Source: Thermoplasmatota archaeon (lineage in GTDB: Archaea; Thermoplasmatota; JAKEGO01; JANQNJ01). Taken from it: a stretch of DNA of 24,000 nucleotides. Of this stretch, positions 4,498 to 24,000 are shown in pieces (position 1 is the stretch's first letter; every line of letters starts with the position of its first letter). Both the position numbers and the translations under genes were made by a program. The stretch lies in the NCBI GenBank assembly GCA_028279645.1, contig JANQNJ010000023.1, forward strand, positions 11,754-35,753. The letters are read 5' to 3'. Under the pieces are notes generated by a model, which was given only the letters and a program-made list of their open reading frames with translations, searched no databases and was not told the origin of the DNA.

Positions 4498-4639
4498 ATC
4501 GAATACCTCCGATGCAATTGACTCAAATGACGACCATCGTTTTTCATGCAGACTCCTCCCCGATGGCGGTATACCTATCATTGTCCCAGAGGTATTATAT
4601 TACAATTGGAAGGCGGTTGGTAGGATATTTAAAGCTTTT
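4494..4639 (-). promoter_or_regulatory. Promoter and leader of paralog C: BRE/TATA-like box, then a 17-codon upstream ORF whose TGA overlaps the main ATG
   Basis: The minus strand reads AAAGCTTTAAATATCC (plus 4624-4639), a good archaeal BRE/TATA match. A second AT-rich box, TAATATAATACC, lies at plus 4591-4602. GGGGAGGAG sits 5 nt before ATG 4547. The uORF (4547-4494) encodes MKNDGRHLSQLHRRYSI and ends in ATATGAGG, where its TGA (4496-4494) overlaps the main ATG (4497-4495). Confidence 0.4.
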
Positions 4640-8163: not shown

Positions 8164-11100
8164 TTACTCGGTGTTATCTGAGTAACACCGCTTAAGCCGC
8201 CCTTCCTTCTCCAGTCTGACCTTCCCCACCCTTTCCAGCATCTTGATATTATAATTAACAGTCTGCTGCGGCTTCTCCAATGTCTTGGCCACTTCCTTCT
8301 GGAAGATGCCGGGATGATCCTCGATCAGCTTGATTATGTCGACCTGGAGGTCGGTCAGTCGGAACTTCTCCTCCTCGGGGAACTTCATTCCTGTGATGTA
8401 GAACGCTTTGTAGCGCAAGCCCTCGGTCCGTGATTTTATCAAGCCCATTTTCTCCATTGTGTAGAGATGGTGAGAGAGGGTTCCGTTGGTGATCCCAAGG
8501 GCTCTCTTAAGCTTTCCATAATGGGAGCCGGGGAAGGCGGTGAGGTATCCGTAGATCTGTCCGCGGACGAAGTTGTCGAGGACCTCGTCCTTGGAACGTT
8601 CCTTCATACGGGCATAGGCTGCCAATGCACCCGCGAACAAGGCGTATCGTCCTGTCTCTGTCGCTAGAAACATGAGAAAGAGGGATGCGCCGATCCCGGC
8701 CCCGATCGGGATGATCGGGAGTGCGGAATCGGATCCGCCTCCTTCCTGACCTCCATTGCCGCCGCCGCCATTCGAGGAGGTGGTCTTGTTCACATTCAGG
8801 GTGACCGAGGATATATTGGAATAGTGTATGCCATCGAAGGACCGGAGATCGATAGTTACTGATCCGTTGGGTAGCATAGACGATTTGAGATTCAAACTCC
8901 AGTTCGATGTTCCCGATACCGCTTTCCAGGTCCCGTTATCTATTCTGTACTGGACGATCTGCAGGAATCTGTTGTCGGAGGCAGAGCCTTCGATAGTGAC
9001 ATTGCCGGTAACGACCGTTCCGTTCATTGGTCCGTCGATGGAGACCGTTGGCGGTTCGGAATCCCAGGCATAGGTCTTTTCGGTCAGGGGATACCTGTCA
9101 GTGTTGTTCTTAGGGGTGTCCAATGGCACATACCCGATGACATAAGGGACCTCGCCGATCCCGTCGTTGTTGATATCGTAACCCGTGTAATCGGACCAGT
9201 AGTTCCCGATCGTTCCATTGTCCCAGTAATTCTTGCCGTCCCCGCCCTCTGCCGCCTGAGAAGTGAGGTTGCCGGAATTGCCGTAGAACTGATTATTGTA
9301 TACAACGGTGCCCGTGCTCTGACCGATCTCAACACCCAGATCGTTATCGGAGATCAAACAACGGGTCACGGTGATGTTATCTGCCCTGTAGATATAGATC
9401 CCAGATTCGGTGTTGTTGTGAACATAGCACCCATCGACCACGATCTTGATCTTGGTCCTATAGAACCTTAATCCTGAATAGTCATTGTGCGAAGCCTCAC
9501 AAGAAGTGATCGAGACATTGTCCATGTCCCCATCGAATTCAAAACCATAGTATCCAGTGTTCGAGGCAAGGCACTCCTGAACGGTCAGATTCGAGCAATC
9601 CCTTAGGTCGAAACCTGTGTTGTTCGTGCCGTTCACGCGGACATTCTGGATCTTGGTGTCATTACAATTCGCGATGACGATTCCGCGGATGTGTTCTCCG
9701 CTGCCATCGACAGAGATATTTAATAATGTGACATGATCGGACCTGGAGATCTCCAATCCGCCAAGTGAGTTATTGAGCACGACATCTTCAATAACGACCT
9801 TATCAGAAAATGAGATGTCTACACCGTACCAGCTGCCGCTGATATTTGTATTCGATATCGAGATATCGTTCGACCGATATCCGGAGATACCAGATTCCTG
9901 CAATGTGGCTGAAGAGACCATGATGTTATCGCTCTCATAGATACTGATCCCTGTGGACGATATACCACTATCTATCAAATGGTTGCAATTAATGATCGAA
10001 ACGTGTGAGCTGTAATCGATGTTGACAGCAATCTGTGTATCGTCGAAGAGAACGTCATCGATGTCCACATAGGAAGATCTATCAAGATCGATGCCGATCC
10101 GGTTCCTGACGAATTCATTCCTCTTCAAGGTGATGTAGGAACCATTTGCAGTTATTCCAAAGGAGGCGTTAATGATCTTCACATCATTGATCTTACAATG
10201 ATCGCCGTTTATCTCGATGGCATCATTACGAGGGTCATCGTTATGATATTCAATGACCAGGTCCGTGATGGAACATTGATCGGTTTCCACGTTGATGATC
10301 GTAATATTCTCGATCCCTGACAGCACTGTATCAGTACCGTTCCCTTTGATCCGCACAGGTATATCGATATTGATCGTCTCACTGTACTGACCGTCATAGA
10401 CAAGGATGAGCTCGCCACCGACCGACGCATTAAGAGCATCACCGATCGTACTGAAGTTCGCTCCAGCCCAGTCGTCATCCACGATCCAGATAGCGGAGGT
10501 TGGTCTAGGATCTGAACCCCCCCAGGGCTCCATCATCGGGTACCTATCGATCACGATGTCCTCTTCAATGATGTGGGGCTGGTCACCGACACCATCGTCG
10601 TCCTCATATGTCCCGCCGTAGGTCGACCAATAATTACCATGGGAGCCGTTGTCTAGGTAAATCACCTCTTCCGAAGAAGAATCGTAGGTGCATTGCTCCC
10701 ACCCATTATTGTTATCGATGAAATTATTGTGATGGATACTATATTCAGTAGAATCACCGACCAATGTTAGACCTTCTCGGCTATTGTTCCGGATAGTGGA
10801 GTTCGTGAGTACCAATTCTTCAACGTAAAGATAGGCTCCAACACCATCATTATCCTCGATAAGGACCCTATCCATTAGGACAGGATCTGACCACATCATG
10901 CTCATACCGCCCCAATCGTTCCCTGTAACCGTTATATTTTCCATTGTTATCGAGGAATCGTCTATTTCGCATCCGTAACGATAGTTGACAGATAGCGTCG
11001 CGTTTTTCAGAGTTCCTAAAGAGCCATCTACCTCTAATCCAGATTCACCATTGAACGAACAATTGATCCAGTTCAATGAGAAATGATCTGTGCGATCAAT

Positions 11101-13722
11101 GAGCAGCCCCTGTTCTTCATTCTCAGAGAAGGTGCAGTTTTCGATCAATAAATTCGTATAATCTCTTGCCATGATCCCGCTCTCACCATTGAACGATATG
11201 TTGGAGTTCCGAACGATCAAGGTGGCATTCGAGCTATAATCTGCTAATAGCCCTTCATTCCTTGAATCGATTATCATGGAATTATTGATCTCGACAAATC
11301 GGGTGTTCTCGATCATGATCCCCTCTCTTCCCGAATCGGTGATCGAAACGTTTTCGATATTAATTTCCTCGCTACGTTCAATTAGCAGCGCTGTGTCTGT
11401 AGTATTTGAGATGGTGAGATCTCGAATCCGTATATCGTTCGATTCGTGTATATACGACCCGTAATAGCTCGAGGGACTATTATCCCCAACGATCGTTAGG
11501 TTCTCACAATAATATATCATAAATTGACCTATATCGCCGATGAATATCTGATCTTGGAGGTTCTGTAACAGGAGGATGCTCGAACCTTCTGTCGATGTAT
11601 TGTGAATATAGTTATCCTCCATCCTGTCGGACCTGAACCCTCCATCGACGGTGCAATTGGAAATTGTATTATAACGCCCCGTGATCTGTATTCCCTCTTG
11701 GACTGTCTTAGTTATTGATGTATTATTTATCAACCCTTGATCAGAATTTGACAAGAGAACGGCTGCTTCCTCACAGCCCGTAATAGTGCAGTTCTCGATT
11801 GTGATCCGATCGCTGCTGGACCCATATATGGCTCTCAATGAAATGTTCAAGAACGAAGAATTTGAGATGAGGATATCATTGCATCGATACATTTTGATCG
11901 GTCTGGCTATATTCTCCAACGCCAAGGATTCGATCGAGATGTTGTGGCAGTCGTACATGATGAGCTGGCCGACCTCATTTCCGATGGCACTGTTGTTCTT
12001 TTCCTTCAAAATGACGAGAGGCCTGTCTTGAACGGTACAGTTATCAAGTGTGTATGTGTCTGAGTAATCAAGAGAAAATCCCATTGTTGTGGAACAATTC
12101 ACTAATGTGATCTCCTCTCCCAGCGAGATGATCACATCATCCCTTCCATTATCAAAAAATGAACAATTATTTATTGCCACATTATCGGTCAGCCGGATGT
12201 AAATGCCCTCCTCACTGTTGCTATAGACCTGGCTGTCCGATAAGGTAACTGAGTCGGAATGATCACACCTTAATCCAAGTGTACCATTCGATAGTGATGT
12301 CCCCTGGATATCGATGGACTCGGCCTCTTCAATAAAGATGCAATAAGATTCAGCCTGAACATCAAGTTCCTGGAAACTGAACTGGCTCCCGTTGATAATA
12401 AATATTCCGAATGAAGTTCCCTCGATCGAGCAGTTGGATATTGTTACTCGTTCGCATCCAGCTAGGTACATTCCATGGTACCCTCCAATCACCGACCAGT
12501 TAGAGATCTCTATGTCGGTGCAGTTAAGGAGGATCACCTGGCCTTCTCCACCATCCAACTGAATATTTGATCGTTTCTTTAGAAACGTGATCGGGTCACC
12601 CTTGAGGGAGCAGTTATCGATCTTATCGATATTAACAACGGTCCAATATGCCATTCCACTGTTGAATGAGCAGTCAACGAAGGAAAAAGATTCGCGACCT
12701 CTCGAATCGATGTCTATCCCTGAATTATTGAACGTACAGTTGCTGGCGAAGATCTCTTTGGCATTGTCCCGTATACCCTCCAGGGATCCGGTGATGATAC
12801 AATCGTACAGTTCTAAGTTCGAATCGCTTGGTGAGATGCCGTATTCATGATTATCGATCAGTACCGTGTTCGTCATCTCGATGTTAGATCGGCTTACTAT
12901 GAGTCCTGCTTTAAAGTGACCAATGTACGAGTCGGTGATCGAGCCGGTGATGATGTCTCTCATCCGTATGCCGATTCCGGTGCTGTTTGTCACGGTTACA
13001 TTCGAGATCGTCATCCTAGAAGCAGTGTAAATACCTGCAAAATCACCTCGGATATCCGATGCAGATACGTTGGTGACGATCACTTCATCGTTCCCGGAAA
13101 GGATCATGCTCCTCCCGCCATCGAACTGGCAGTCATCAATGGTCACACTATCTGAATCATAGACCCGGACATTGAAATCGGAAGATGAGAACATACTTTG
13201 CTCGATCGATATGTTCCCGCCGTTCCAAACCCATAGAGTACTGTCGCCACCGATATCAGAGGTTCCGGCCGACATATTGCAGTTCCTGAACGTAAGGTCG
13301 CCTGAATAAAGCGCTCGGAAACCGTGACCTGCTGAGTTCACAGTGAGGTTTGAAAAAAGACCAAGGTCTACATACCATAGTTCGATGCCAAATTCCTTTC
13401 TTCCTGAGGATATTGAAAAACCATCCAGTTGGAAAAATGATGCATTTACATCAAGCGTCTTCCCAGTGGATTCGATCTCCGACAGACCGGAACCATTTCC
13501 GATCAGTGATAGGTTCCGATCTACGACGACCTGTTCATGATACCGGCCATCATAGACCCTAATGACGTCATCGGGATCCGCACTGTCCACTGCATCCTGT
13601 ATCCGGTCGAAATCCGCACCTGCCCAGTCATCATCCACAATCCAGGTCCTTCCCCCGCACCCACCTACCACCATTACTAGAATAAGGAAAAGACCTCCCA
13701 TGATATACGCATAATACCTCAT
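8164..13722 (-). CDS. Giant surface beta-helix protein with C-terminal TM anchor and cytoplasmic double winged-helix module, paralog B (1852 aa)
   Basis: Complete ORF in the track. The N-terminus is MRYYAYIMGGLFLILVMVVGGCGGRTWIVDDDWAGADF. One very long beta-helix module of roughly 1000 aa carries dozens of coils marked by .NC(S/T). and ends at HGNYWSTYGGTYEDDDGVGDQP...DRYPMM. A second module starts at AIWIVDDDWAGANF and ends at GNYWSDYTGYDINNDGIGEVPY...DRYPL. Then come an Ig-like stalk (PPTVSIDGPMNGTVVTGNVTIEGSASDNR...), a Gly-rich linker, the TM segment LPIIPIGAGIGASLFLMFLATETGRYALFAGALAAY, and a double wHTH tail. Confidence 0.9.
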   Translation of the reverse strand: MRYYAYIMGGLFLILVMVVGGCGGRTWIVDDDWAGADFDRIQDAVDSADPDDVIRVYDGRYHEQVVVDRNLSLIGNGSGLSEIESTGKTLDVNASFFQLDGFSISSGRKEFGIELWYVDLGLFSNLTVNSAGHGFRALYSGDLTFRNCNMSAGTSDIGGDSTLWVWNGGNISIEQSMFSSSDFNVRVYDSDSVTIDDCQFDGGRSMILSGNDEVIVTNVSASDIRGDFAGIYTASRMTISNVTVTNSTGIGIRMRDIITGSITDSYIGHFKAGLIVSRSNIEMTNTVLIDNHEYGISPSDSNLELYDCIITGSLEGIRDNAKEIFASNCTFNNSGIDIDSRGRESFSFVDCSFNSGMAYWTVVNIDKIDNCSLKGDPITFLKKRSNIQLDGGEGQVILLNCTDIEISNWSVIGGYHGMYLAGCERVTISNCSIEGTSFGIFIINGSQFSFQELDVQAESYCIFIEEAESIDIQGTSLSNGTLGLRCDHSDSVTLSDSQVYSNSEEGIYIRLTDNVAINNCSFFDNGRDDVIISLGEEITLVNCSTTMGFSLDYSDTYTLDNCTVQDRPLVILKEKNNSAIGNEVGQLIMYDCHNISIESLALENIARPIKMYRCNDILISNSSFLNISLRAIYGSSSDRITIENCTITGCEEAAVLLSNSDQGLINNTSITKTVQEGIQITGRYNTISNCTVDGGFRSDRMEDNYIHNTSTEGSSILLLQNLQDQIFIGDIGQFMIYYCENLTIVGDNSPSSYYGSYIHESNDIRIRDLTISNTTDTALLIERSEEINIENVSITDSGREGIMIENTRFVEINNSMIIDSRNEGLLADYSSNATLIVRNSNISFNGESGIMARDYTNLLIENCTFSENEEQGLLIDRTDHFSLNWINCSFNGESGLEVDGSLGTLKNATLSVNYRYGCEIDDSSITMENITVTGNDWGGMSMMWSDPVLMDRVLIEDNDGVGAYLYVEELVLTNSTIRNNSREGLTLVGDSTEYSIHHNNFIDNNNGWEQCTYDSSSEEVIYLDNGSHGNYWSTYGGTYEDDDGVGDQPHIIEEDIVIDRYPMMEPWGGSDPRPTSAIWIVDDDWAGANFSTIGDALNASVGGELILVYDGQYSETINIDIPVRIKGNGTDTVLSGIENITIINVETDQCSITDLVIEYHNDDPRNDAIEINGDHCKINDVKIINASFGITANGSYITLKRNEFVRNRIGIDLDRSSYVDIDDVLFDDTQIAVNIDYSSHVSIINCNHLIDSGISSTGISIYESDNIMVSSATLQESGISGYRSNDISISNTNISGSWYGVDISFSDKVVIEDVVLNNSLGGLEISRSDHVTLLNISVDGSGEHIRGIVIANCNDTKIQNVRVNGTNNTGFDLRDCSNLTVQECLASNTGYYGFEFDGDMDNVSITSCEASHNDYSGLRFYRTKIKIVVDGCYVHNNTESGIYIYRADNITVTRCLISDNDLGVEIGQSTGTVVYNNQFYGNSGNLTSQAAEGGDGKNYWDNGTIGNYWSDYTGYDINNDGIGEVPYVIGYVPLDTPKNNTDRYPLTEKTYAWDSEPPTVSIDGPMNGTVVTGNVTIEGSASDNRFLQIVQYRIDNGTWKAVSGTSNWSLNLKSSMLPNGSVTIDLRSFDGIHYSNISSVTLNVNKTTSSNGGGGNGGQEGGGSDSALPIIPIGAGIGASLFLMFLATETGRYALFAGALAAYARMKERSKDEVLDNFVRGQIYGYLTAFPGSHYGKLKRALGITNGTLSHHLYTMEKMGLIKSRTEGLRYKAFYITGMKFPEEEKFRLTDLQVDIIKLIEDHPGIFQKEVAKTLEKPQQTVNYNIKMLERVGKVRLEKEGRLKRCYSDNTE
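8167..8724 (-). other. TM segment (about 8614-8724) plus 149-aa cytoplasmic tandem winged-helix tail (8167-8613) of paralog B
   Basis: The tail ARMKERSKDEVLDNFVRGQIYGYLTAFPGSHYGKLKRALGITNGTLSHHLYTMEKMGLIKSRTEGLRYKAFYITG...LTDLQVDIIKLIEDHPGIFQKEVAKTLEKPQQTVNYNIKMLERVGKVRLEKEGRLKRCY aligns with the paralog A tail without gaps. By hand count, 110 of 149 residues are identical. Confidence 0.7.
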
Positions 13723-13925: not shown

Positions 13926-15995
13926 GTGGTTCCCGACATCGATGAGGATCAGCCGAAGGGACAGGGTCATCCATCGACTTCCGACAGGAGCGAGGATGCT
14001 CCCTACACTTCTTCAAGCGACAGCGGTTACGACCTGAAGCAGGAGAACGGCGATCCCGGCTACTACGACCAGGACGACGCTGCATTCTCCGAGGGTGAAC
14101 CACCCAAGGAGCCGGCTTACGACGAGGACGAGAAGAAGGAGACCCTCTTCAACCAGTTCCCCAAGAACTTCTGGGTGATCAACGCCCTGGAGCTGTTCGA
14201 GAGGGGCGCGTACTACGGGACCATGGCCATCCTGGCGGTGCATATCCACGACAATCTGGACTACTCTGCCAGCGAGACCGGTCTGCTTCTCAGCATCATG
14301 CTGACATTATTGTACTTCGTCCCGCTCATTGCGGCGGCGTTCGCGGAGAAGATCGGGTACAAACGCACCCTGATCTTTGCCTTCGCTGCGATGGCCGTCG
14401 GGTACACGATGTACAGCGCCGTAAGTCAATTTGCGCTGTTGATCGTGAGCATCCTCTTTCTTGGGATCGGAGCGGGCACGTTCAAACCGATCATATCGGC
14501 GAGCATCGCCAAGATCACCCGAGAGGACCAGCGGAACCAGGCCTTCTCCATCTACTACTGGATGATCAACCTCGGCGCCCTGTTGGTGCCCTGGACCTTT
14601 GCGTTCTTCAGCGGCGCGAACATCTTTGATCCGGAGACCAACGCCGAGTACGTGTTCCTGGGTTCGACCATGCTCGTGGGCATCAACCTGTTCATAACGT
14701 TCACCATGCTTGAGGACCCGTCCCCCCCGAACCCCAAGAAGGATATCTTCGATTCATTGAGGAACCTGACCGTGGTCGCAAGGGACAGACGGTTCTTCAT
14801 CCTTCTTCTTATCTATTCCGGATTCTGGTTCATGTTCGCCATGTGCCACTCCTACCTCCCGCTGTACATGGTGCATTTCCTCGAGATGCCGGATTATTTC
14901 TCGGTGTTCCTGCTTGCAGGGTTCAATCCTCTGACGATAGTCATTGCCGGTCCCTTCCTGAGCACCCAGGTCAAAAAGTACGACTCGCTCAAACTGATGA
15001 TAACCGGCATGGCGATATTCTGCATAGGCCTTGTGATCCTCGGGTTCACCACGATGCCTGCATTGTTCATCGCGGGCATCATCATCTTCTCCCTGGGGGA
15101 GTTCATCACTCATCCAAACTTCATTGCTTACGTTTCCAAGATCGCTCCCAAGGACAAGGTGGCCATCTACATGGGCTATGCCTTCCTGCCATCCGGGATC
15201 GGATACGTCCTGGGTGCAGGGGTAGGCGGAGTGCTCTTCGGATCGGTGGCGGAGGGATGGGAGAGGCCCAAGGTGTTCTGGGCCATCGTCACCTGCATCG
15301 GCCTCGCGACGATAATGCTGTTCACCCTATACGACAGGAAGATGCGCAAGGAGGGGGTCGTGGAGGCGGTCGAGGCGGAGCCTGTCGCTGCCGAGGAAGC
15401 TCCCGGGAAGTTCAGCTCGTTCTCAATGAGCACCGACGTCGTAGCATTGATCGCCGTGATCATGATCCCGGTAGTGTTGTTCGCAGCAATGGGAGCGGGA
15501 ACCAACGCTTACATCGAAACGGACAAGGATGACGGCCCATCAAAGGGAAAAGGCAAGGGAGGTCCCGATCCCGACGAGGTGTTCAAGTTCTCGGAAACCA
15601 ACACGGGCAACCTCAACGAGCAGGAGAGCACGACCCTGAACTACAGTACAGGAGGGTACAACATACGTGCAACGTTCATCCTCACTTGGACGGACGAACC
15701 TGACAACGGTGTTCCAACCTACGAGAACGAAGGAGACACGTTCACGCTCGAGGTCATCGGTCCGGGCAACAACAGGGACTCGGATACAGCCACCAATGAG
15801 CACGATCAGGAGGGGCGCATCGAGCTTACCTTCGAGATCGGTGAGAAGGAATCGATACCGGGAGGCTGGAACGCCACGGTCACCCTAGATGAGGCCGGTG
15901 ATCAGAGCGCATTTGGCGGGGGTACCGGCGTCGTCTTCATCGACGACAGCAACGACTACACCCTCGATGTTGAGATTGAGTACTTGCTGGAGTGA
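13926..15995 (+). CDS. MFS transporter of the POT/PTR2 (proton-dependent oligopeptide transporter)-like type, with an acidic N-terminal extension and an extra C-terminal TM plus extracellular domain
   Basis: ELFERGAYYG (nt 14190-14216) matches the POT signature ExxERFxYYG. GAGTFKPIISASIAKI and FSIYYWMINLGALL match the second POT motif region (KPN... / FYxxINxG). About 12 hydrophobic helices span aa 80-470. There is no in-frame ATG before the ExxER motif, so the GTG at 13926 is the likely start. Confidence 0.7.
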   Translation: MVPDIDEDQPKGQGHPSTSDRSEDAPYTSSSDSGYDLKQENGDPGYYDQDDAAFSEGEPPKEPAYDEDEKKETLFNQFPKNFWVINALELFERGAYYGTMAILAVHIHDNLDYSASETGLLLSIMLTLLYFVPLIAAAFAEKIGYKRTLIFAFAAMAVGYTMYSAVSQFALLIVSILFLGIGAGTFKPIISASIAKITREDQRNQAFSIYYWMINLGALLVPWTFAFFSGANIFDPETNAEYVFLGSTMLVGINLFITFTMLEDPSPPNPKKDIFDSLRNLTVVARDRRFFILLLIYSGFWFMFAMCHSYLPLYMVHFLEMPDYFSVFLLAGFNPLTIVIAGPFLSTQVKKYDSLKLMITGMAIFCIGLVILGFTTMPALFIAGIIIFSLGEFITHPNFIAYVSKIAPKDKVAIYMGYAFLPSGIGYVLGAGVGGVLFGSVAEGWERPKVFWAIVTCIGLATIMLFTLYDRKMRKEGVVEAVEAEPVAAEEAPGKFSSFSMSTDVVALIAVIMIPVVLFAAMGAGTNAYIETDKDDGPSKGKGKGGPDPDEVFKFSETNTGNLNEQESTTLNYSTGGYNIRATFILTWTDEPDNGVPTYENEGDTFTLEVIGPGNNRDSDTATNEHDQEGRIELTFEIGEKESIPGGWNATVTLDEAGDQSAFGGGTGVVFIDDSNDYTLDVEIEYLLE

Positions 15996-16679: not shown

Positions 16680-18359
16680 CTACTTCCCCTTCTTCTGCAT
16701 CCGAGCCCATGTGTCCCTGAGTGTAACGCTCCTGTTCAGGACCTGTCGCTTCGAGGTCGAATCCGGATCGACGCAGAAGTATCCGAGCCGCTCGAACTGG
16801 AACCTATCGAAGACCGCAAGGTCGGTTATCGATGGCTCGACCTTCGCGTCCGGGATCACCTTCAATGAATCGGGATTGATGAGATCGGCGAGCTTCGCGT
16901 CCTTCTCGCCGAGCGGGTTCTCGACGGTGAAGAGACGGTCGTACAGCTTCACCTCGGCGTCGACCGCATGACGGGCCGAGACCCAGTGCAAGGTGGCCTT
17001 GACCTTTCTTCCATCGGGGGAATCGCCGCCTCGTGTGGCGGGATCGACGCTGCATCTCAGCTCGGTCACGGTGCCTTCCTCGTCCTTGATGACATCGTTG
17101 CATATCAGGAAATACGCATACCTTAACCGGACCTCGCGGCCGGGTGCCAGTCGGTAGAACTTTCGAGGAGGATCCTCCATGAAGTCGCTGCGTTCTATGT
17201 ACAGTTCTCTTGAGAATGGAACGGTCCTCGTCCCCGCCGACGGGTCCTCCGGATTGTTGACAGCATCGAGCCCTTCATCGTGGTCCTCGGGAAGGTTCTC
17301 GATGACGACCTTCAACGGATCGAGGACGCCCATGAACCTCGATGCTGTTCTGTTGAGCTCATCCCTGACCACCGATTCGAGAAGTCCCAGATCGATGATG
17401 TTCGCCTTCTTTGCGACGCCCACGCGCCTGAGGAACTCCCTGATGGCTGCAGGTGGATAGCCCCTTCTGCGCATGCTCCCTAGGTTCGGCATGCGAGGAT
17501 CGTCCCAGCCTTTCACGTGACCCTCCTCGACCAGCTGCCTCAGCCACCTCTTGCTCATGACGGTGTAGGTCATGTTCAGGCGCGCGAACTCCGTCTGCTC
17601 CGGATGATAGACCTCGAGCTGCTCGAGGAACCAGTTGTACAGCGGTCTGTGGTTCTCGAACTCGAGGGAGCAGAGGGAATGTGTGATCCGCTCGATGGAG
17701 TCGGATTGCCCGTGTGTCCAATCGTACATCGGATAGATGCACCAGTCGTCGCCGGTTCTGGGATGAGGCTGGTGAAGGATCCTGTACATAACCGGGTCGC
17801 GCATGTTCATGTTGGGATGGGCCATGTCGATCTTTGCCCTGAGCACATGAGCGCCGTCTGGGAACTCTCCCGCTCTCATCCTGGTGAACAGATCTAGATT
17901 CTCCTCTACGGAACGGTCCCGGTGAGGGCTGTTCCTGCCGGGCGTGGTCAGATCGCCGCGATACTCCTTGATCTCGTCACCGCTGAGGTCGTCCACGTAG
18001 GCTACGCCCTTGTTGATGAGCATCACGGCCCATTCGTAGAGCTTCTCGAAGTAGTCGGATGCGAAGTAGAGCCGGTCCTCCCAGTCGTAGCCGAGCCACC
18101 GGATATCCTCCATGATCGAGTCGATGAACTCCTGCTCCTCGGTGGCGGGGTTGGTGTCGTCGAACCGCAGGTTGCATAATCCCGTGTAATCCTCGGCTAC
18201 GCCGAAGTTCAACACGATGGACTTGGCATGTCCGATGTGCAGATAACCATTCGGCTCGGGTGGGAACCGCGTATGAACGCGACCCTCGAACTTGCCAGAG
18301 GCGTTGTCCTCGTCGATCTTCGTCCTTATGAAGTCATGCAGCTTCTCTTCTTCGCTCAT
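16680..18359 (-). CDS. glnS: Glutaminyl-tRNA synthetase (GlnRS), bacterial-type, with no eukaryote-like N-terminal extension
   Basis: [71 protein letters not shown] is collinear with E. coli GlnRS as I remember it ([71 protein letters not shown]). The match continues through [28 protein letters not shown](S/T)LEF, the VMSKR class I motif, [13 protein letters not shown]..(L/I)HWVSA, LYDRLF, FQFER.GYF and LRDTWA. I trimmed the start from the track's GTG 18413 to ATG 18359, which aligns with the E. coli N-terminus. Confidence 0.9.
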
Positions 18360-18459
18360 CTGATACTCTCCGTTCCAGGTCGTGCTCACCGACCCGGACC
18401 TCCTCGAAATCACGCTAGGATGATAATAAGGATTTGGGTCGGATCGGGACCACGCACGC

Positions 18460-18810
18460 TCAGAGCTCGAACGTCGTGGTCAGGAGCTTCTGCTCCTCCT
18501 CGCTCTTCATGGTGAACTCCGGGAAGTCGTTCATGTACTCATCGATCCCCAGTTCGGTGATGGAGATCCGATGATCGGGTTCGAGAGCGAGATATCCGCA
18601 TTTCATCAGATAGTCGATGACCTCGGCGTACTGGACCGAATCGAAGCGGGACCGGAGCTCGGGCTCGTGCTGAAGGATCTCGTCCGGAGTGAACGTCACG
18701 GAGGAGGAGCCTTCAACGTGCTCGTAGATCGCCGAGAGGAGGAACTTCCTGTCCTCAAGCTTCTCGAGCATCCTGCCCTTGTAGTCGTCGTGTACCTTTC
18801 CTTCGGCCAT
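18460..18810 (-). CDS. Hypothetical small acidic protein, first gene of the putative glnS operon
   Basis: The track ORF is 18460-18837 with a GTG start. The in-frame ATG at 18810 gives [32 protein letters not shown]... It is on the same strand as glnS and 100 nt upstream of it. A TATA-like box lies about 35-45 nt upstream. No recognisable family. Confidence 0.5.
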
Positions 18811-18842
18811 CTCTATCCAATTGGTTAACACAGCCACATGGA

Positions 18843-18854
18843 CTTATATTTTTT
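18843..18854 (-). promoter_or_regulatory. TATA-like box upstream of the hypothetical gene and glnS operon
   Basis: The minus strand reads AAAAAATATAAG, roughly 35-45 nt upstream of ATG 18810. Confidence 0.35.
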
Positions 18855-19024
18855 GGGACATCGCTCTGTACCGTTCGAATGGATTTAACACATCTATGAG
18901 GCCTAAATCCAGGCCAGAGAGGGAGAAACAAGCTCGAAGGGCGGGTCCAAGCGTCTACCAAGCATGGGTCCGAACATATTCCCGGCGCGGGACGTCCGTC
19001 GTTCCCGGCTATATTATACGTATA

Positions 19025-19111
19025 GAGCCCCGTCGACCGAGAGGCTTAAGAAGTATCTCAGCAGAACCGTTCTGGAGCGAATGTCAGGCTTAACCTCTCG
19101 GGTACGGGGCT
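19025..19111 (-). ncRNA. tRNA-Gln acceptor-stem-mimic long hairpin element, copy 2 (distal to the tRNA)
   Basis: The minus strand reads AGCCCCG-TA-C-CCGAGAGG-TTAAG...CCAGAACGGTTCTGCTG...CTTAAG-CCTCTCGG-TCGA-CGGGGCT-C. The closing 7-bp helix AGCCCCG/CGGGGCT is identical to the acceptor stem of the adjacent tRNA-Gln. The inner 8-bp stem is plus 19037-19044 paired with 19094-19101. The apical 10-mer (plus cagcagaacc, 19059-19068) is shared with copy 1. Confidence 0.5.
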
Positions 19112-19120
19112 ACGTATCCC

Positions 19121-19138
19121 AAAAATTAAAGAAAAGAG
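19121..19138 (-). terminator. Oligo-T tract after hairpin element copy 1
   Basis: The minus strand reads CTCTTTTCTTTAATTTTT immediately 3' of the element. T-rich tracts act as archaeal termination signals. Confidence 0.4.
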
Positions 19139-19225
19139 TAGCGCCGTCGACCATCGTGCTTAAGATGTATACCAGCAGAACCTAGCTGAAGCGCTTTTTA
19201 AGAATAACACGATGGGTACGGGGCT
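19139..19225 (-). ncRNA. tRNA-Gln acceptor-stem-mimic long hairpin element, copy 1 (proximal to the tRNA)
   Basis: The minus strand reads AGCCCCG-TA-C-CCATCGTG-TTATTCTTAA...GGTTCTGCTG...CTTAAG-CACGATGG-TCGA-CGGCGCT-A. The architecture matches copy 2. The inner 8-bp stem (plus 19151-19158 paired with 19208-19215) differs from copy 2 at five consecutive positions, each with the matching complementary change. The closing helix has one C:C mismatch. The 3' flank TCGACGGCGCTACTCTTTT mirrors the 3' flank of the tRNA. Confidence 0.5.
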
Positions 19226-19237
19226 ACGGCTCCCAAC

Positions 19238-19251
19238 ATAAATAAAAAGAG
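19238..19251 (-). terminator. Oligo-T tract directly after tRNA-Gln
   Basis: The minus strand reads CTCTTTTTATTTAT immediately 3' of the discriminator base. Confidence 0.4.
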
Positions 19252-19323
19252 TAGCCCCGTCGAGATTCGAACTCAAGTCGCGAGGTCCAGAGCCTCGCAT
19301 GATAACCTCTACACCACGGGGCT
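19252..19323 (-). tRNA. tRNA-Gln (anticodon CTG)
   Basis: The minus strand reads AGCCCCG TG GTGTAGAGGTTATCAT G CGAGG CTCTGGA CCTCG CGAC TTGAG TTCGAAT CTCGA CGGGGCT A. It has a perfect 7-bp acceptor stem, a 5-bp anticodon stem, and the loop C-T-CTG-G-A with T33 and a purine at 37. The T-loop TTCGAAT is canonical with a G53-C61 pair. T8, A14 and the GG in the D-loop are present. The first pair is A1-U72 and the discriminator is A73. CCA is not encoded. Length is 72 nt. Confidence 0.9.
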
Positions 19324-19386
19324 ATTACGAGCGTCCATGGGTATCGACCACGTCGAAACCTAGAACGAGAAATCTGTAATCCCGAG

Positions 19387-19402
19387 CATATATATATTTA
19401 TT
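19387..19402. promoter_or_regulatory. AT-rich TATA-like tract between the divergent tRNA-Gln and the small membrane ORF, possibly a bidirectional promoter
   Basis: catatatatatttatt lies about 40-55 nt upstream of ATG 19441 on the plus side and about 65-80 nt upstream of the tRNA 5' end on the minus side. No better TATA candidate lies closer to the tRNA. Confidence 0.3.
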
Positions 19403-19440
19403 GTGCAACGGAAGGTTTTTACTTCCATTGGCGCTTGTGG

Positions 19441-19632
19441 ATGCAGATAGCGATGTCCTTTGACTTCATCCTCATGCTGACCTTCTTCATTATGGCCCTG
19501 GTCTTCGGTAATCTGGCCTGGGTAGCGAAGCATGCCTGGAGGGACAGGAGGAGGACAGAGCTGTTCGTCTGGATCGCGGTCGTATCCACCATTGCGTTCA
19601 TGATAACGGCCTGGCCGTACATTCCGGATTGA
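19441..19632 (+). CDS. Small two-TM membrane protein (63 aa from ATG 19441)
   Basis: MQIAMSFDFILMLTFFIMALVFGNLAWVAKHAWRDRRRTELFVWIAVVSTIAFMITAWPYIPD has two clear hydrophobic helices separated by a basic loop. Its stop overlaps the TTG start of the next ORF (TTGA at 19629-19632). Confidence 0.4.
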   Translation: MQIAMSFDFILMLTFFIMALVFGNLAWVAKHAWRDRRRTELFVWIAVVSTIAFMITAWPYIPD

Positions 19633-19883
19633 TCGTTGGAGGACCGCTGTTGACTGATCCTGAAAAGGCTGCATCATGCACCATCGAGGTCGAGCTGGAC
19701 GCTGACCAGATCGAGGCGGTGATGGCGGCCCTACAACCGGATAACACAGGGTTCGTGGACACCACTAGGGACGGCAATATCGTCAGGTTCACAATATCAT
19801 CGGGCTCTGTCAGGTCGCTCCGCCATACCATCGACGATCTCATGGCATGCTTGAAGGTCGCGGAATCCGCCTCAAGGAAGTGA
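19629..19883 (+). CDS. Pcc1-like KEOPS complex subunit (small alpha/beta protein)
   Basis: ASCTIEVELDADQIEAVMAALQPDNTGFVDTTRDGNIVRFTISSGSVRSLRHTIDDLMACLKVAESA fits the archaeal Pcc1 pattern as I remember it: an N-terminal beta strand plus helix, then R.G..(V/L).(F/V).(I/V), then ..(S/D)...LR...(N/D)..(L/M)..(L/V).VAE. The size is right at about 80 aa. There is no in-frame ATG before VMAAL, so a TTG or other non-ATG start is implied. Confidence 0.5.
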   Translation: MIVGGPLLTDPEKAASCTIEVELDADQIEAVMAALQPDNTGFVDTTRDGNIVRFTISSGSVRSLRHTIDDLMACLKVAESASRK

Positions 19884-19900
19884 CTACGGCCCCGGACACC

Positions 19901-19918
19901 TTTCTTTTTAAAAAGAAA
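19901..19918. terminator. Perfect 18-nt AT palindrome (TTTCTTTTTAAAAAGAAA) downstream of the Pcc1-like ORF. T-tracts on both strands make it a candidate bidirectional terminator.
   Basis: The sequence equals its own reverse complement. It lies 18 nt after stop 19883 and about 40 nt before the next gene's TATA-like box. Confidence 0.35.
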
Positions 19919-19958
19919 CCGGCGAAATCGATGGTTATGTGGTGTGGAAGTACGAAAC

Positions 19959-19967
19959 CTATTTAAG
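19959..19967 (+). promoter_or_regulatory. TATA-like box for the KaiC-like ATPase gene
   Basis: CTATTTAAG is preceded by GAAAC. Its centre is about 26 nt upstream of ATG 19989, which fits a leaderless archaeal mRNA. Confidence 0.45.
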
Positions 19968-19988
19968 CAGAACGACCGATTTTGTGCC

Positions 19989-20636
19989 ATGCGCAGGCTC
20001 ACAGATTCCGGTATTCCCGGACTGGACGGGCTCCTGGGAGGGGGCTTCGTCAAGCCGTCCATAACGTTCGTTTGTGGACCGCCGGGTTCCGGCAAGACGA
20101 TATTCGCGTTCCAGGCGCTGTTCCACGGCGCCAACAGAATGGGCGAGAACGGGATGTACCTCTCCATCGACGACCTCGACGATAGTGAGCTCGACCTGAT
20201 GTCGTCCTACGGCTTCTACAGCCACGAGCTGATCACGTCAGGAGCGGTGAGGTACGAGAGCCTAGCGGAGGTATGCTACGGCAAGTCCGACATACTTTCG
20301 GATATCTTCAAGCGGATCGACGCAACAGGCAGCGACCGCGTCGTCCTCGATCCCATCGAGATAATCAACGCTAGCTACGAGCAGTCTGCGATATGGCGGG
20401 TCCTGATGGAGGTTAGGAGGGGGATGAGGGAGAGGGAGTGCCTCGCGTTCCTGTGCGGCTCCGCCGAGAACATGCGAAAGATGTCGTATTTCTGCGACTG
20501 CCTGATCTGGCTCGATAAGGACGAGGACGATGGTGAACGCACCATCACGATCGAGAAGATGCGCGGCACAGGGCACTCCATGGGTCCGAAGAAGATGGAG
20601 ATCTCCGAGCAGGGGATCATGGTCTGGCCGGACTAG
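19989..20636 (+). CDS. KaiC/RadA-like RecA-superfamily ATPase, single domain
   Basis: MRRLTDSGIPGLDGLLGGGFVKPSITFVCGPPGSGKTIFAFQ carries the GIPGLD...GG(F/L) lead-in and the Walker A motif GPPGSGKT, both typical of archaeal KaiC-like proteins. Walker B-like DRVVLDPI follows. The C-terminal ITIEKMRGTGHS matches the K(M/L)RG..H motif. I trimmed the start from the track's GTG 19944 to ATG 19989. Confidence 0.75.
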   Translation: MRRLTDSGIPGLDGLLGGGFVKPSITFVCGPPGSGKTIFAFQALFHGANRMGENGMYLSIDDLDDSELDLMSSYGFYSHELITSGAVRYESLAEVCYGKSDILSDIFKRIDATGSDRVVLDPIEIINASYEQSAIWRVLMEVRRGMRERECLAFLCGSAENMRKMSYFCDCLIWLDKDEDDGERTITIEKMRGTGHSMGPKKMEISEQGIMVWPD

Positions 20637-20715
20637 GCCGTCAGACATCATGTAAGGTATTGGTGCTAGTTTCCCGGTTATCGGATTAGCATCATAGAGT
20701 TCATCATTGTCATAT

Positions 20716-21267
20716 ATGAGGAGTAGAATGGGAGAAAAACGGTTAGGACAATGGTACCAGAATGATCTCGAGATCTACGCAGGTATATTGGTATTGATAC
20801 TAGCCACATTGTTCATATTCTACGCTGCTTATGATACCCTCGCATTCAGTTACAATCTCTTCCATCATGGAGAGGACCCTACCGATTTTATATTCTTCTT
20901 GATCTTCGCAGTAGCTATCTTGATGGCTCCCAGCGCATTGCTTCTGATCCATCCGTCCTGGAAGATCAGATATCAGTTCGATGAGGTCTCGATCACCGAT
21001 CTTGAAAAGGTATTGAAAAGGAAAGGATGGACCTACAAGATGCTCGCTCCATATTCAAGCGAAAAGAACAAATGGACGGTCAACGGACATTACAAAGTAA
21101 CAGGCAACAGGTCGTTTGGCAGGTGCAACTTGACCATAATTGTAAGCACTTCAGACGGCAAGGTCGCACTACTCGAGATCTCTCGTCGTTTCGATACCAA
21201 GGGATCGATATTGTTCAGATTGAAAGAGGATCTTGATGAGGGCATGTTCTCGGATCTGAGTGAGTGA
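20716..21267 (+). CDS. Hypothetical membrane protein (two TM helices plus a soluble domain of about 100 aa), AT-rich gene
   Basis: The TM helices are LEIYAGILVLILATLFIFYAAY and FIFFLIFAVAILMAPSALLLI. The C-terminal domain is YQFDEVSITDLEKVLKRKGWTYKM...KVALLEISRRFDTKGSILFRLKEDL. The start is ATG 20716 (track TTG 20707) or ATG 20728. No family recognised. Confidence 0.5.
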   Translation: MRSRMGEKRLGQWYQNDLEIYAGILVLILATLFIFYAAYDTLAFSYNLFHHGEDPTDFIFFLIFAVAILMAPSALLLIHPSWKIRYQFDEVSITDLEKVLKRKGWTYKMLAPYSSEKNKWTVNGHYKVTGNRSFGRCNLTIIVSTSDGKVALLEISRRFDTKGSILFRLKEDLDEGMFSDLSE

Positions 21268-21294
21268 AGATCAGGTCAATTGTGATCGATCGCT

Positions 21295-23949
21295 TCAAGC
21301 CTCGATCAGCACCGTGATCTCGCCGACCTTCACGGCCTCCACAGGCTGCCCATCCCTTGTGAGAGAATGGTCGATCTCGACGAACTCCTTCAGAACGATG
21401 GTCTCCCCCTCCACCTCAACCGTGGCGCCGTCCTCGATCCCCTGCGGATCGGTGCTGTTGATCGCAGCGATAACGACCTTGGCATTCCCCTTGAACTTCG
21501 GACCGATCTCGGAATGGACCGGCTTCGCCGACACCGCCTTTCGAACGAGGTCGACGTCGTCGACGATATCAAGCGACCCAATTGAGCCAGGACGAGTGAT
21601 CTCCTCTTCATAACCTGCCAATCCTGCGGCTGCTGGACCGACTAGGACGACCTTGGATATCGGCTTGTTGAGAGCGATGCCGTTGTCAGATTTCCACCGC
21701 CGGATGCCGCGGACGATCTCCATGATCATCTCGCCCTTGTTGACGAGATCGTCCGGAAGATCGACGGAGACGGCCTTTGGCCAGGGAGCGATATGGACGC
21801 TCTCGGTACCCTCGATGCGCTTGTAGTGATCGTGATAGACCTCTTCGGTGATATGCGGCAGGAATGGAGCCATCAGCTTGACGGAGCCGGATCCGACGAG
21901 ATACAGGATGTGTCCGACCATCATGTCCGAGACATCGTCTGAATCGTCCTCGGGATAGGTCCGGTGCTTGACTAGCTCGATGTAGTTGTCGGCGACATCG
22001 TGCCAGAGGAACTGCTCCACAGCACGCAGCGTCCTGTCGAAGCGGAACTCGCCCATGGCGTCGGTGCACCCTTCGATCGTACTGTTCAATCTGGAGAGTA
22101 TCCATGCATCAACGGCGCTGAGGTTCGCGGCATCGGGCATGTGCCTGTCTGCATCCCCAAGTTCATAGATACCGGTTCTGTCAAGAGCACCACCAATGAA
22201 CCTGCTAAGGTTGAGGACCTTTCTGATCAGGCGCTCTCCCCGGGTGATATCCTTCCGACGGAATGAATTGTCCTCGCCCAGGGCGCAGTTGGCAGCATAA
22301 TACCTGAGCGGGTCGGCGCCGTGCTTCTCGAGGACCTCGAGTGGATCGATGACATTTCCCTTTGATGCGTGCATGGGGGTGCCATCCTCCGAGAGGATGA
22401 ACCCGTCCATCATGATCTCGGTGAACGGTTTGTCGCCGGTGACCAGCGAACACCTGAGGATCGTGTAGAATGCCCAGGTCCGGATGATGTCGTGGGCCTG
22501 GGGCCTAAGCGACATCGGATATATCCTGTTGAAGAGCGCCTCGTCGCGTTGCCAGAAGGTGTTGTATAGTGGCGATATCGAGGAGTCCATCCACGTATCG
22601 AAAACGTCCTCGCAACCCACAAGCTTACCGCTGCACTTGGGACAGCTCTCAACGGGAGGAGCGTCCTTCGTTGGATCGATATAGCATGCATCCTCGGTCG
22701 GCAGTACCACCTCGCCGCATTCCTCGCACTCCCATAGGGGGATCGGCGTCGCGAAGTACCTCTGCCTTGAGACCACCCAATCCCATTCCAGCGAGTTGAC
22801 CCACTCCTTTAACCGTATCTCCATGAACTTCGGGAACCAGTCCATCTCGTCGGATGCCCTCAGGACCATCTCCTTGAAGTCGATGGTCTTCACGAACCAC
22901 TGCGGGGTCACGATGAACTCAACCGGCGCGTGACATCGCCAGCAGGTACCGACGTTCTGTTCGGTGTCCTCCTGCTTGACCAAGTGTCCTTCCTCGGCAA
23001 GGAGTTCGATCATCTTCGCCTTCGCCTCGGGAATGGGCATACCCGCTATTGGTCCGCCCAGCTCGTTCATACGACCCTGCTCGTCGATGGCGATGTCCAG
23101 AGCGAGCTTGTACTTCTGGATCCATTCGAGGTCGTCCTTGTCCCCGATGCTGCAGATCATGACGACCCCGGTGCCGAAGTCCATGGCCACCTTGTCGTCC
23201 TTGATGATGGAGACCTCCTTGCCGTAGATCGGGGTCGTGGCCTTCTTGCCGGCGAGCTGTTCAGCCCTTGGATCATCCGGATTGACCGCCATGAGCTGGC
23301 ATGTCGCGATAAGTTCCGGGCGTGTGGTAGCGATCTGCAGAGGCTCACCGTCGAGGTCGAAGTTGACGAAGTTCAACTTCGACGTCCTTCCTTCGTACTC
23401 GACCTCGGCATCCGCGAGCGCCGTCATGCAGCGCGGGCACCAGTTGATGGGGTAGGAACCCTTGTATACGAGGCCCTTGTCGAACATCTTGATGAAAGAG
23501 ATCTGCGTCAGCCGACGATAGTATTCGGCATTCGTCTGGTAGTAGACCGTGGGATCCATGGACTCCCCCAGGATCTTGAACTGCCGCGTCATCTCTCCGA
23601 TGTTCGCCTCGGCGAACTCCTCGCACAGCTTGATGAAGTCGTGCCTGTCGATGTCCATCCTCGTGATGCCGTGCTTCTTCTCCACTCTCTCCTCGATCGG
23701 GATCCCGTTGACATCGAAACAGAGAGGGAAGAAGACGTTGTGGCCGCACATCCGCTTATAGCGGGCAACGAAATCGATGTGCGTGTAATGAGCGGCGTGA
23801 CCGACATGCAGACCGCCTGACGCATATCTCGGCGGGTTGTCGATGCTGTACACCGGCGCGTCCGAACCGGGGTCGAAATGGTAGAGCCCGAGCTCCTCCC
23901 ACCGGTCCTGCCATCTCTTCTCAACTTCCAGCTGTTCGTAGTCGCTCAT
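21295..23949 (-). CDS. valS: Valyl-tRNA synthetase, archaeal type (884 aa)
   Basis: EKRWQDRWEELGLYHFDP...YSIDNPPRYASGGLHVGHAAHYTHIDFVARYKRMCGHNVFFPLCFDVNGIPIE is collinear with archaeal ValRS such as the M. jannaschii enzyme as I remember it (IDTPPPFTSGTLHLGH...[24 protein letters not shown]). Other matches are TTRPELIATC..AVNPDD, FGTGVVMICSIGDKDD, WDWV(V/I)SRQR, CPKC and CWRC zinc knuckles, the degenerate KMSKS motif MHASKGNVIDP, and GADPLRYY. Confidence 0.88.
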   Translation of the reverse strand: MSDYEQLEVEKRWQDRWEELGLYHFDPGSDAPVYSIDNPPRYASGGLHVGHAAHYTHIDFVARYKRMCGHNVFFPLCFDVNGIPIEERVEKKHGITRMDIDRHDFIKLCEEFAEANIGEMTRQFKILGESMDPTVYYQTNAEYYRRLTQISFIKMFDKGLVYKGSYPINWCPRCMTALADAEVEYEGRTSKLNFVNFDLDGEPLQIATTRPELIATCQLMAVNPDDPRAEQLAGKKATTPIYGKEVSIIKDDKVAMDFGTGVVMICSIGDKDDLEWIQKYKLALDIAIDEQGRMNELGGPIAGMPIPEAKAKMIELLAEEGHLVKQEDTEQNVGTCWRCHAPVEFIVTPQWFVKTIDFKEMVLRASDEMDWFPKFMEIRLKEWVNSLEWDWVVSRQRYFATPIPLWECEECGEVVLPTEDACYIDPTKDAPPVESCPKCSGKLVGCEDVFDTWMDSSISPLYNTFWQRDEALFNRIYPMSLRPQAHDIIRTWAFYTILRCSLVTGDKPFTEIMMDGFILSEDGTPMHASKGNVIDPLEVLEKHGADPLRYYAANCALGEDNSFRRKDITRGERLIRKVLNLSRFIGGALDRTGIYELGDADRHMPDAANLSAVDAWILSRLNSTIEGCTDAMGEFRFDRTLRAVEQFLWHDVADNYIELVKHRTYPEDDSDDVSDMMVGHILYLVGSGSVKLMAPFLPHITEEVYHDHYKRIEGTESVHIAPWPKAVSVDLPDDLVNKGEMIMEIVRGIRRWKSDNGIALNKPISKVVLVGPAAAGLAGYEEEITRPGSIGSLDIVDDVDLVRKAVSAKPVHSEIGPKFKGNAKVVIAAINSTDPQGIEDGATVEVEGETIVLKEFVEIDHSLTRDGQPVEAVKVGEITVLIEA

Positions 23950-23976
23950 CGGGATCGGTCCGCATACCTCATTTTA

Positions 23977-23996
23977 CATTAATAAAGCTTTATACA
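23977..23996 (-). promoter_or_regulatory. TATA-like region upstream of valS
   Basis: The minus strand reads TGTATAAAGCTTTATTAATG, 28-47 nt upstream of ATG 23949. Confidence 0.35.
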
Positions 23997-24000
23997 GGTG

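Follow-up and report, generated by a model that had tools for sequence, protein, structure and literature searches.

A bacterial-type glutaminyl-tRNA synthetase gene beside an archaeal-type tRNA-Gln in Thermoplasmatota

How does an archaeon come to encode a glutaminyl-tRNA synthetase (GlnRS), and what would such an enzyme charge? The question is raised by a 24,000-nucleotide stretch of DNA from a Thermoplasmatota archaeon (positions 11,754 to 35,753 of contig JANQNJ010000023.1, assembly GCA_028279645.1; hereafter the window), in which a glnS gene of bacterial type lies near a tRNA-Gln gene of archaeal type. Reviews published between 2008 and 2022 state that archaea lack GlnRS and regard archaeal tRNA-Gln as a barrier to it (PMC2330236, PMC7373986, PMC9499178, PMC8762117), and those from 2020 to 2022 describe a glutamyl-tRNA synthetase of the non-discriminating kind (ND-GluRS) acting with the amidotransferase GatDE as the only archaeal route (PMC7373986, PMC9499178, PMC8762117). 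The unusual archaeal tRNA-Gln, with A1-U72 and A73, is said to have coevolved with GatDE (the same reviews as for the barrier, including PMC2330236). We propose, with a confidence of roughly 85%, that the window encodes a functional bacterial-type GlnRS, native to its host, anciently acquired and vertically inherited, which charges the adjacent archaeal-type tRNA-Gln directly. The two features on which this proposal turns are as follows.

16680..18359, minus strand: glnS, bacterial-type GlnRS, 559 aa (profile, structure and residue comparison)
19252..19323, minus strand: tRNA-Gln(CUG), archaeal type (ARAGORN; Rfam tRNA, 57 bits)

The minus-strand frame of glnS is open from stop to stop over 16680..18413. 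The ATG at 18359 is preferred as the start over an in-frame GTG at 18413 and over 18389 (the start used in the product P0001), because the N terminus then aligns with those of homologues. An earlier note on this DNA, made from the sequence alone, had described a full-length class I synthetase collinear with the Escherichia coli enzyme, and profile and structure comparisons bear this out. The protein scores 732 bits against the NCBIfam glnS equivalog TIGR00440 (cut-off, 425.8), with residues 28-552 covering profile positions 1-523 of 524, and can be aligned along its whole length with structures of E. coli GlnRS (residues 5-554 on 5-551; 686 bits, 56% identity). Matches to other solved structures reach 707 bits for Pseudomonas GlnRS, 521 for Deinococcus, 473 for human and 439 for yeast. 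A GluRS or another paralog, which the note had kept in mind, is not what the profiles point to: the archaeal GluRS model TIGR00463 (348.8 bits against 401.75) and the GluRS model NF003169 (306.1 against 516) both stay below their cut-offs, and the glnS equivalog cut-off is exceeded. The Pfam domains are tRNA-synt_1c (PF00749, 348 bits), tRNA-synt_1c_C and tRNA-synt_1c_C2, the last two (PF03950 and PF20974) being the two C-terminal β-barrel anticodon-binding domains. The eukaryotic N-terminal appendage is missing, as the note had seen; residues 26-550 align with human GlnRS 263-772, and only about 25 residues precede the core. A YqeY tail is absent as well, since NF011291 is matched from position 11 to position 561 of its 769, with 3 residues of the protein left beyond the match.

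At the residue level, the signature motifs HIGH (residues 41-44, H41-H44) and VMSKR (267-271) are the same as in E. coli. R30, Y211, C229 and Q255 (E. coli numbering), which we take to form the glutamine pocket in E. coli GlnRS structures, are identical in the window protein and throughout the 201 aligned sequences. Among residues that contact the anticodon, R341, R402, R410, Q517 and R520 are invariant in 9 archaeal sequences, 92 members of the clade discussed below and 76 bacterial sequences; R412 is Arg in the window and in 8 of the 9 archaeal sequences and elsewhere mostly Lys. Catalytic and binding residues are identical across the archaeal sequences checked (9 or 16) apart from three, namely the last His of HIGH and V267 and M268 of VMSKR, each of which varies in 1-2 of 16 archaeal sequences. 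The window gene is thus a GlnRS whose catalytic, glutamine-binding and anticodon-binding residues are intact.

Whether the gene belongs to an archaeal chromosome depends on its surroundings, of which three features matter here.

21295..23949, minus strand: valS, archaeal ValRS, the taxonomic anchor (NF009687, 950 bits; homologues)
19944..20636, plus strand: KaiC-family ATPase (Pfam PF06745, 116.8 bits)
18460..18837, minus strand: open reading frame (ORF) between tRNA and glnS, 125 aa (or 116 aa with 18810 as start), no assigned family

Named relatives of the ValRS belong only to Thermoplasmata or Methanomassiliicoccales (52-61% identity), and ValRS and GlnRS are encoded on one 42,418-bp NCBI contig. 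An exact look-up of the GlnRS product P0001 returned no contig; that of the ValRS product did retrieve one. The earlier note had listed archaeal ValRS, KaiC-like and Pcc1-like neighbors. The first two stand, although archaeal KaiC models of NCBIfam match the 19944..20636 product below their cut-offs; the third does not, as five small nearby ORFs gave neither a Pcc1 match nor any significant Pfam match (E≤5). The composition of glnS follows that of the housekeeping genes, in keeping with the note's view that the gene is well ameliorated: GC content is 0.581 for glnS and 0.579 for valS, third-position GC (GC3) is 0.779 in both, and the relative synonymous codon usage (RSCU) of the two has a correlation of r = 0.92. 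A Logan contig that was deposited separately (SRR20820740, locus L082) is identical to window positions 18148-24000, with 0 mismatches in 5,853 nt, and spans valS, kaiC, the tRNA, the 125-aa ORF and the first 212 nt of glnS.

These data bear directly on an assembly or binning artifact, in which a fragment of bacterial DNA carrying glnS was joined to archaeal DNA. Such an origin could explain why the closest named matches include proteins from metagenome-assembled genomes (MAGs) of Planctomycetota, TA06 and Chloroflexi at about 70% identity, and why GC content steps near 13.7 kb in the window. However, glnS shares the high-GC half with valS, which it matches in GC3 and codon usage, and the compositional outliers are instead giant β-helix genes that encode archaeal HVO_0163-type helix-turn-helix domains and have counterparts beside glnS in another archaeal locus (L083). 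The separately deposited contig repeats the valS-tRNA-glnS junction exactly, the flanking tRNA-Gln is of archaeal type, and glnS occurs in twelve other archaeal loci, some on contigs of 100-350 kb. An artifact is therefore extremely improbable. The host contig is archaeal, contamination or chimerism is effectively excluded, and the note's judgment that the gene is no binning contaminant holds.

The gene is not confined to this genome. In a scan of GTDB species representatives for glnS, from which the best 80 loci were taken, five Thermoplasmatota genomes appear, two of them with contigs of 353 kb and 113 kb bearing the gene, and named protein matches include several GlnRS entries from a "Thermoplasmata" or "Thermoplasmatales archaeon", such as ex4484_30. 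Assemblies in which glnS was met are GCA_054001055.1, GCA_975956975.1, JAZGAR01 (SCS1bin.31), CAWEDU01 (MFD03804.bin.2.29), CAYHBA01 (ERP119294_co1_428) and DAIRED01. Genomic context was sampled for nine further relatives of the window GlnRS. Seven are archaeal, with PolD DP2, MCM, TBP, L18Ae, prefoldin, class I LysRS, PurP, DTD2 and CPxCG zinc finger genes nearby; two are bacterial (L084, with KpsF, a KdsC-like protein and tRNA-Arg(ACG), and L091, with HSP90 and PEGA). With P0002 (832 aa, 1207 bits) set aside, the closest relative is P0070 from L083, 73% identical, whose gene neighbors encode HVO_0163-type β-helix proteins, L18Ae, prefoldin and an SRP54-family GTPase. Pairwise identity among archaeal GlnRS is 63-81%, and the order HGPRT, class I LysRS, tRNA-Gln, glnS, tRNA-Gln is common to two loci (L088 and L090). 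Directly downstream of glnS, two other loci carry a tRNA-Glu(CUC) gene (L008 7759-7832, L087 11814-11910), and that of L087, labeled tRNA-??? by ARAGORN, appears to hold an intron of about 20 nt.

A recent acquisition by this organism alone, the alternative that these loci address, would fit the long branch of the window GlnRS and the 73% identity to P0070 (P0002 set aside), which makes that protein about as distant as Planctomycetota enzymes at 70%. Yet the nearest relative is itself archaeal, the linkage of glnS to tRNA-Gln recurs in other archaeal loci, the codon usage of glnS is fully ameliorated, and the valS product of the same contig is likewise only about 60% identical to its nearest relatives. 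We consider a private acquisition highly unlikely. glnS is instead an old inherited trait of a sizeable part of Thermoplasmatota, bacterial in derivation. The horizontal acquisition suggested by the earlier note is thus upheld as to its bacterial source and set aside as an event private to this genome, and GlnRS proves to be widespread in the lineage, a prospect that the note had said would lower the novelty. The enzyme family is already known, and NCBI already labels proteins from Thermoplasmata MAGs as GlnRS. Our survey of full-text literature, with subscription-only papers outside its scope, found no report of an archaeal GlnRS.

Several relatives (P0010, P0013, P0026, P0040, P0064, P0091) bear the NCBI name "glutamine--tRNA ligase/YqeY domain fusion protein." For homologues of 557-567 aa this is probably a misnomer, because that length is too short for YqeY and the best-scoring model, NF011291, supplies the name; domain coverage was checked for the window protein alone.

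Where did the archaeal enzymes come from? In a neighbor-joining tree of 201 sequences (552 columns, 100 bootstraps), all 16 identified archaeal GlnRS fall inside one 92-leaf clade (bootstrap, 69/100) that also holds a Planctomycetota/TA06 subgroup of about 10 sequences and is nested within bacterial GlnRS diversity. The tree thus supports a horizontal origin of archaeal GlnRS from bacteria, and the donor enzyme may have been similar to GlnRS of Planctomycetota or other members of the PVC (Planctomycetota-Verrucomicrobiota-Chlamydiota) group.

The most distinctive property of the archaeal loci is the position of glnS next to its presumed substrate. Of 13 archaeal loci, 11 have a tRNA-Gln gene no more than about 2 kb from glnS, compared with 5 of 78 bacterial ones (Fisher P = 6e-9), and the two archaeal loci without a linked gene offer less than 1 kb of upstream sequence to inspect. 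In L085, L088 and L090 a gene for the CUG isoacceptor lies upstream of glnS and one for the UUG isoacceptor downstream. In the window, glnS starts 892 bp downstream of tRNA-Gln(CUG) on the same strand. This tRNA carries A1-U72, G2-C71, C3-G70, G10 and A73, confirming the archaeal features that the earlier note had read from it (A1-U72 and A73); CCA is not encoded, and an oligo-T tract follows the 3' end. It is the presumed substrate of the window GlnRS.

Across the linked archaeal tRNA-Gln genes, the acceptor stem reads (A/G)GCCC(C/U)G in 15/15. The first pair is A1-U72 in 13 of the 15 and G1·U72 in two, both in L085, and the discriminator is A73 in 10/15 and G73 in 5/15, namely both genes of L001, both of L085 and one of L090. 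In the data set, bacterial tRNA-Gln has U1-A72 and G73 with one exception (L049, A73). GatDE has been reported to recognize A1-U72 of tRNA-Gln (PMC2330236), and the E. coli glutamine identity set comprises pairs 1-72 and 3-70, position 73 (G73), the 10-25 pair and the anticodon (PMC9976931). With A1-U72 as a feature read by GatDE and G73 as part of the set used by E. coli GlnRS, the G73 and G1·U72 variants are what would be expected if GlnRS, and no longer GatDE, constrains tRNA-Gln.

These nucleotides matter for a further alternative, that the protein is a GlnRS-derived paralogue with another role (GluRS-like, or regulatory tRNA binding) and that Gln-tRNA(Gln) is made through GatDE only. The identity nucleotides of archaeal tRNA-Gln do differ from the bacterial ones (A1-U72 and A73 instead of U1-A72 and G73), and heterologous GlnRS fail on archaeal tRNA-Gln (PMC2330236). 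A paralogue freed from glutaminylation is nevertheless difficult to reconcile with glutamine-pocket and catalytic residues that, wherever checked, are identical to those of E. coli GlnRS, with invariant anticodon-reading arginines and Gln517, and with a score far above the glnS equivalog cut-off and below those for GluRS. In addition, some linked tRNAs have shifted toward the bacterial set (G73 in L001, in L085 and in one gene of L090), and L085, with G1·U72, lacks the A1-U72 pair that GatDE recognizes (PMC2330236). Another role for the protein is, on balance, very unlikely, and we infer that the window GlnRS may charge a tRNA-Gln with A1-U72 and A73.

How could a bacterial enzyme accept such a tRNA? 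One clue is residue 235. Asp235 of E. coli GlnRS presumably reads the minor groove at G2 and G3, and E. coli GlnRS with the D235N substitution is a relaxed-specificity mutant. The window protein has Asn236 at this position, and Asn is found in 16 of 16 verified archaeal GlnRS and in 84 of the 92 clade members. In 75 bacterial loci other than E. coli, the residue is Asp in 46 and Asn in 20, the Asn carriers being mostly Planctomycetota, Verrucomicrobiota, Omnitrophota, Cloacimonadota and Latescibacterota. When residue 235 was compared with pair 3-70 in GTDB loci and the window, wherever a linked tRNA was present, and in E. coli (tRNA-Gln about 9 kb from glnS), G3-C70 occurred with Asp in 6/6 cases and C3-G70 with Asn or Val in 7/7, in a small and correlative sample. 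His at 235 accompanies a U3-A70-like pair (15 loci sampled, bacteria and archaea). Leu136, which we take to be the wedge that opens the 1-72 pair, is retained in the window GlnRS. Within the 126-138 loop, which presumably holds the acceptor end, position 130 is Arg in 69 of 76 bacteria and, for most of the clade, Ser, Lys or Thr, and Thr135 is often replaced by Asp or Asn in the clade. Since its presumed substrate lacks the E. coli-type identity set, the window GlnRS probably uses acceptor-stem rules that differ from that set.

Several observations weigh against the proposal as a whole. Archaeal tRNA-Gln is reportedly no substrate for the GlnRS of E. coli or of yeast (PMC2330236, citing Tumbula 2000). 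Asn235 and Ser/Lys130 are common to the Planctomycetota subclade and are not archaeal-specific adaptations; being shared with that subgroup, these enzyme features look like preadaptations of the donor enzyme and not changes that followed transfer. Support for the 92-leaf clade is moderate (69/100) and monophyly of the archaeal sequences alone is recovered in 2/100 bootstraps, and we therefore claim neither a single transfer nor a specific donor. The window GlnRS itself sits on a long branch, and its position in the tree is unstable; as the closest relatives of ValRS likewise reach only about 60% identity, we read this branch as that of a deep host lineage.

We return to a functional GlnRS of bacterial origin and suggest the following history. 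An ancestor within Thermoplasmatota would have gained glnS long ago from bacteria, from a donor whose GlnRS resembled Planctomycetota/PVC enzymes in having Asn for Asp at the residue that reads pair 3-70. The gene would then have been inherited vertically down to the deep-branching Thermoplasmata host. There, GlnRS would attach glutamine directly to the adjoining tRNA-Gln (A1-U72, G2-C71, C3-G70, A73), providing a one-step route to Gln-tRNA(Gln) that may replace or accompany ND-GluRS and GatDE.

Accompaniment is the substance of a further alternative, in which a functional GlnRS works alongside retained GatDE and ND-GluRS and the two routes are redundant, with no replacement. Ten of the 15 linked tRNA-Gln keep both A1-U72 and A73, and 13 of 15 keep A1-U72, features that GatDE uses (PMC2330236). 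Furthermore, a gatE transcript is listed for one MBG-D (Marine Benthic Group D)/Thermoprofundales MAG (PMC6461988, supplement), although this MAG is not linked to a glnS-bearing genome. Against redundancy, both isoacceptors lack A1-U72 (L085, G1·U72) or carry G73 in some lineages, which is easier to understand if GatDE no longer constrains them. We place such coexistence not far short of even odds. More tentatively, and at odds clearly below even, we suggest that a self-contained module for direct glutaminylation, made up of bacterial-derived glnS and the tRNA-Gln isoacceptor genes coupled to it, may have displaced GatDE in at least some lineages and may be pulling tRNA-Gln identity toward the bacterial set, with G73 and the weakened G1·U72 pair as its traces.

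If displacement took place, it would be the first natural case of archaea giving up indirect Gln-tRNA synthesis and a counterexample to the view that archaeal tRNA-Gln blocks GlnRS acquisition. The Thermoplasmatota glnS loci indicate that the supposed barrier to an archaeal GlnRS has been crossed in nature, and the enzyme and its presumed archaeal-type substrate, lying side by side, make the barrier hypothesis directly testable. The locus is relevant, too, to the ways in which indirect routes of aminoacylation come to be replaced, and it supplies from nature a GlnRS/tRNA pair whose identity set is nonstandard. What is new is recognition and interpretation, that is, archaeal occurrence set against the reviews, and not the protein family itself.

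Did the tRNA gene play a part in the arrival of glnS? Directly 3' of tRNA-Gln lies a pair of repeats built from its ends.

19018..19236, minus strand: tandem pair of units, each about 114 nt, adjoining tRNA-Gln on its 3' side (repeat search, family D1)

Each unit opens with a copy of the tRNA 5' end (GTAGCCCCGTACCC) and closes with a copy of the tRNA 3' end and trailer (TCGACGG(C/G)GCT...); the 3'-end motif has two matches where 0 are expected. The units fold as long hairpins (z-scores, -4.55 and -4.65), and their inner helices differ by compensatory changes, CCAUCGUG/CACGAUGG in one and CCGAGAGG/CCUCUCGG in the other. A search of Rfam at a relaxed threshold returned no family and only chance-level small nucleolar RNA matches. 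The tRNA 3' end had zero exact matches among viral contigs, and the gapped arm pattern had one match in metagenomes of the Joint Genome Institute (JGI), a chance match inside a high-GC coding region. Elsewhere, tRNA-Gln-end fragments or hairpins lie beside tRNA-Gln(CUG) in L001 (1226-1336) and L088 (6884-6978), and L021 has such fragments at 4652-4720, 4870-4900 and 4969-5041, together with a partial second tRNA-Gln whose 3' end is divergent. In each lineage, the discriminator base in the copies agrees with that of the tRNA itself (L001, G; L088, A), suggesting that duplication or recombination took place locally at the tRNA gene. The hairpin units could be scars of recombination there or a structured RNA, and their membership in a module of glnS and tRNA is uncertain. 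The tRNA-end repeats beside the tRNA gene give a hint that glnS may originally have arrived through recombination at tRNA-Gln.

Beyond the tRNA, the gene neighborhood around glnS is not conserved. In tblastn comparisons of ten window proteins with 81 loci (80 glnS loci and the E. coli region), nothing was shared apart from weak β-helix matches in L021. The 125-aa ORF at 18460..18837 has no Pfam or NCBIfam match, and tblastn did not recover it from the other archaeal loci with glnS; it is called as a gene in contig L082 too. Much of the rest of the window is taken up by three large genes.

1-4599, 4648-8004 and 8164-13722, minus strand: three tandem giant proteins of at least 1533, 1118 and 1852 aa

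The two complete giant proteins have a signal- or transmembrane-like N terminus, many right-handed β-helix/NosD repeats and a Big_7 domain, and after the repeats a transmembrane segment is followed by C-terminal HVO_0163-type and MarR-like winged-helix DNA-binding domains. They resemble regulators that are tethered to the membrane and whose extracellular portions are very large. Their genes have a GC3 of 0.45-0.57, far below the housekeeping value of 0.78, and similar genes flank glnS in L083 and L086. An MFS/POT-like transporter of 689 aa (13926-15995, plus strand) has an acidic N-terminal extension of about 70 aa and, past its core of 12 transmembrane segments, a C-terminal extension of about 190 aa that matches no family. 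An ORF of 186 aa (20707-21267, plus strand) has a GC content of 0.44 and a GC3 of 0.55, well below its neighbors valS and kaiC; it has no family match, yet it is called as a gene in L082.

Among the closest known systems is E. coli GlnRS (PDB models 1gtr, 1qtq and 1o0b), with which the window GlnRS is collinear over its full length at 56% identity, with the same three Pfam domains and with the HIGH, VMSKR, glutamine-pocket and anticodon-contact residues and Leu136 all kept. It departs from that enzyme in having Asn for Asp235, the same substitution as in the PDB variant 1qrs, and in the acceptor-end loop, where Lys130, Asp135 and Thr138 stand in place of Arg, Thr and Gln. The tRNAs differ in parallel positions: A1-U72, C3-G70 and A73 in the window against U1-A72, G3-C70 and G73 in the E. 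coli type, with G2-C71 and G10 common to both. The nearest bacterial relatives are Planctomycetota/PVC GlnRS (P0010, on a 97-kb contig, and Omnitrophota L063), which are about 70% identical, fall in the same clade and share Asn235, and Ser130 too, with the archaeal enzymes; in the linked tRNA-Gln of L063, acceptor pairs 2-7 (GCCCCG) are identical to those of archaeal tRNA-Gln. These systems differ in their bacterial hosts, in a tRNA-Gln with U1-A72 and G73, and in a glnS that is seldom beside tRNA-Gln (5/78 bacterial loci).

The best NCBIfam score, 841.6 bits over the GlnRS core, belongs to the Deinococcus-type GlnRS/YqeY fusion (NF011291; PDB model 2hz7), from which the window GlnRS is set apart by having no C-terminal YqeY domain. 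With eukaryotic cytosolic GlnRS (human, 4ye6, and yeast, 4h3s; 473 and 439 bits), it has the catalytic and anticodon-binding core in common, but it lacks the N-terminal domain of about 260 aa, and the similarity is below that to bacterial enzymes. Finally, the archaeal route through ND-GluRS and GatDE likewise ends in Gln-tRNA(Gln), formed on a tRNA of the same kind (A1-U72), but it gets there in two steps with transamidation, and the window protein is not an archaeal GluRS.

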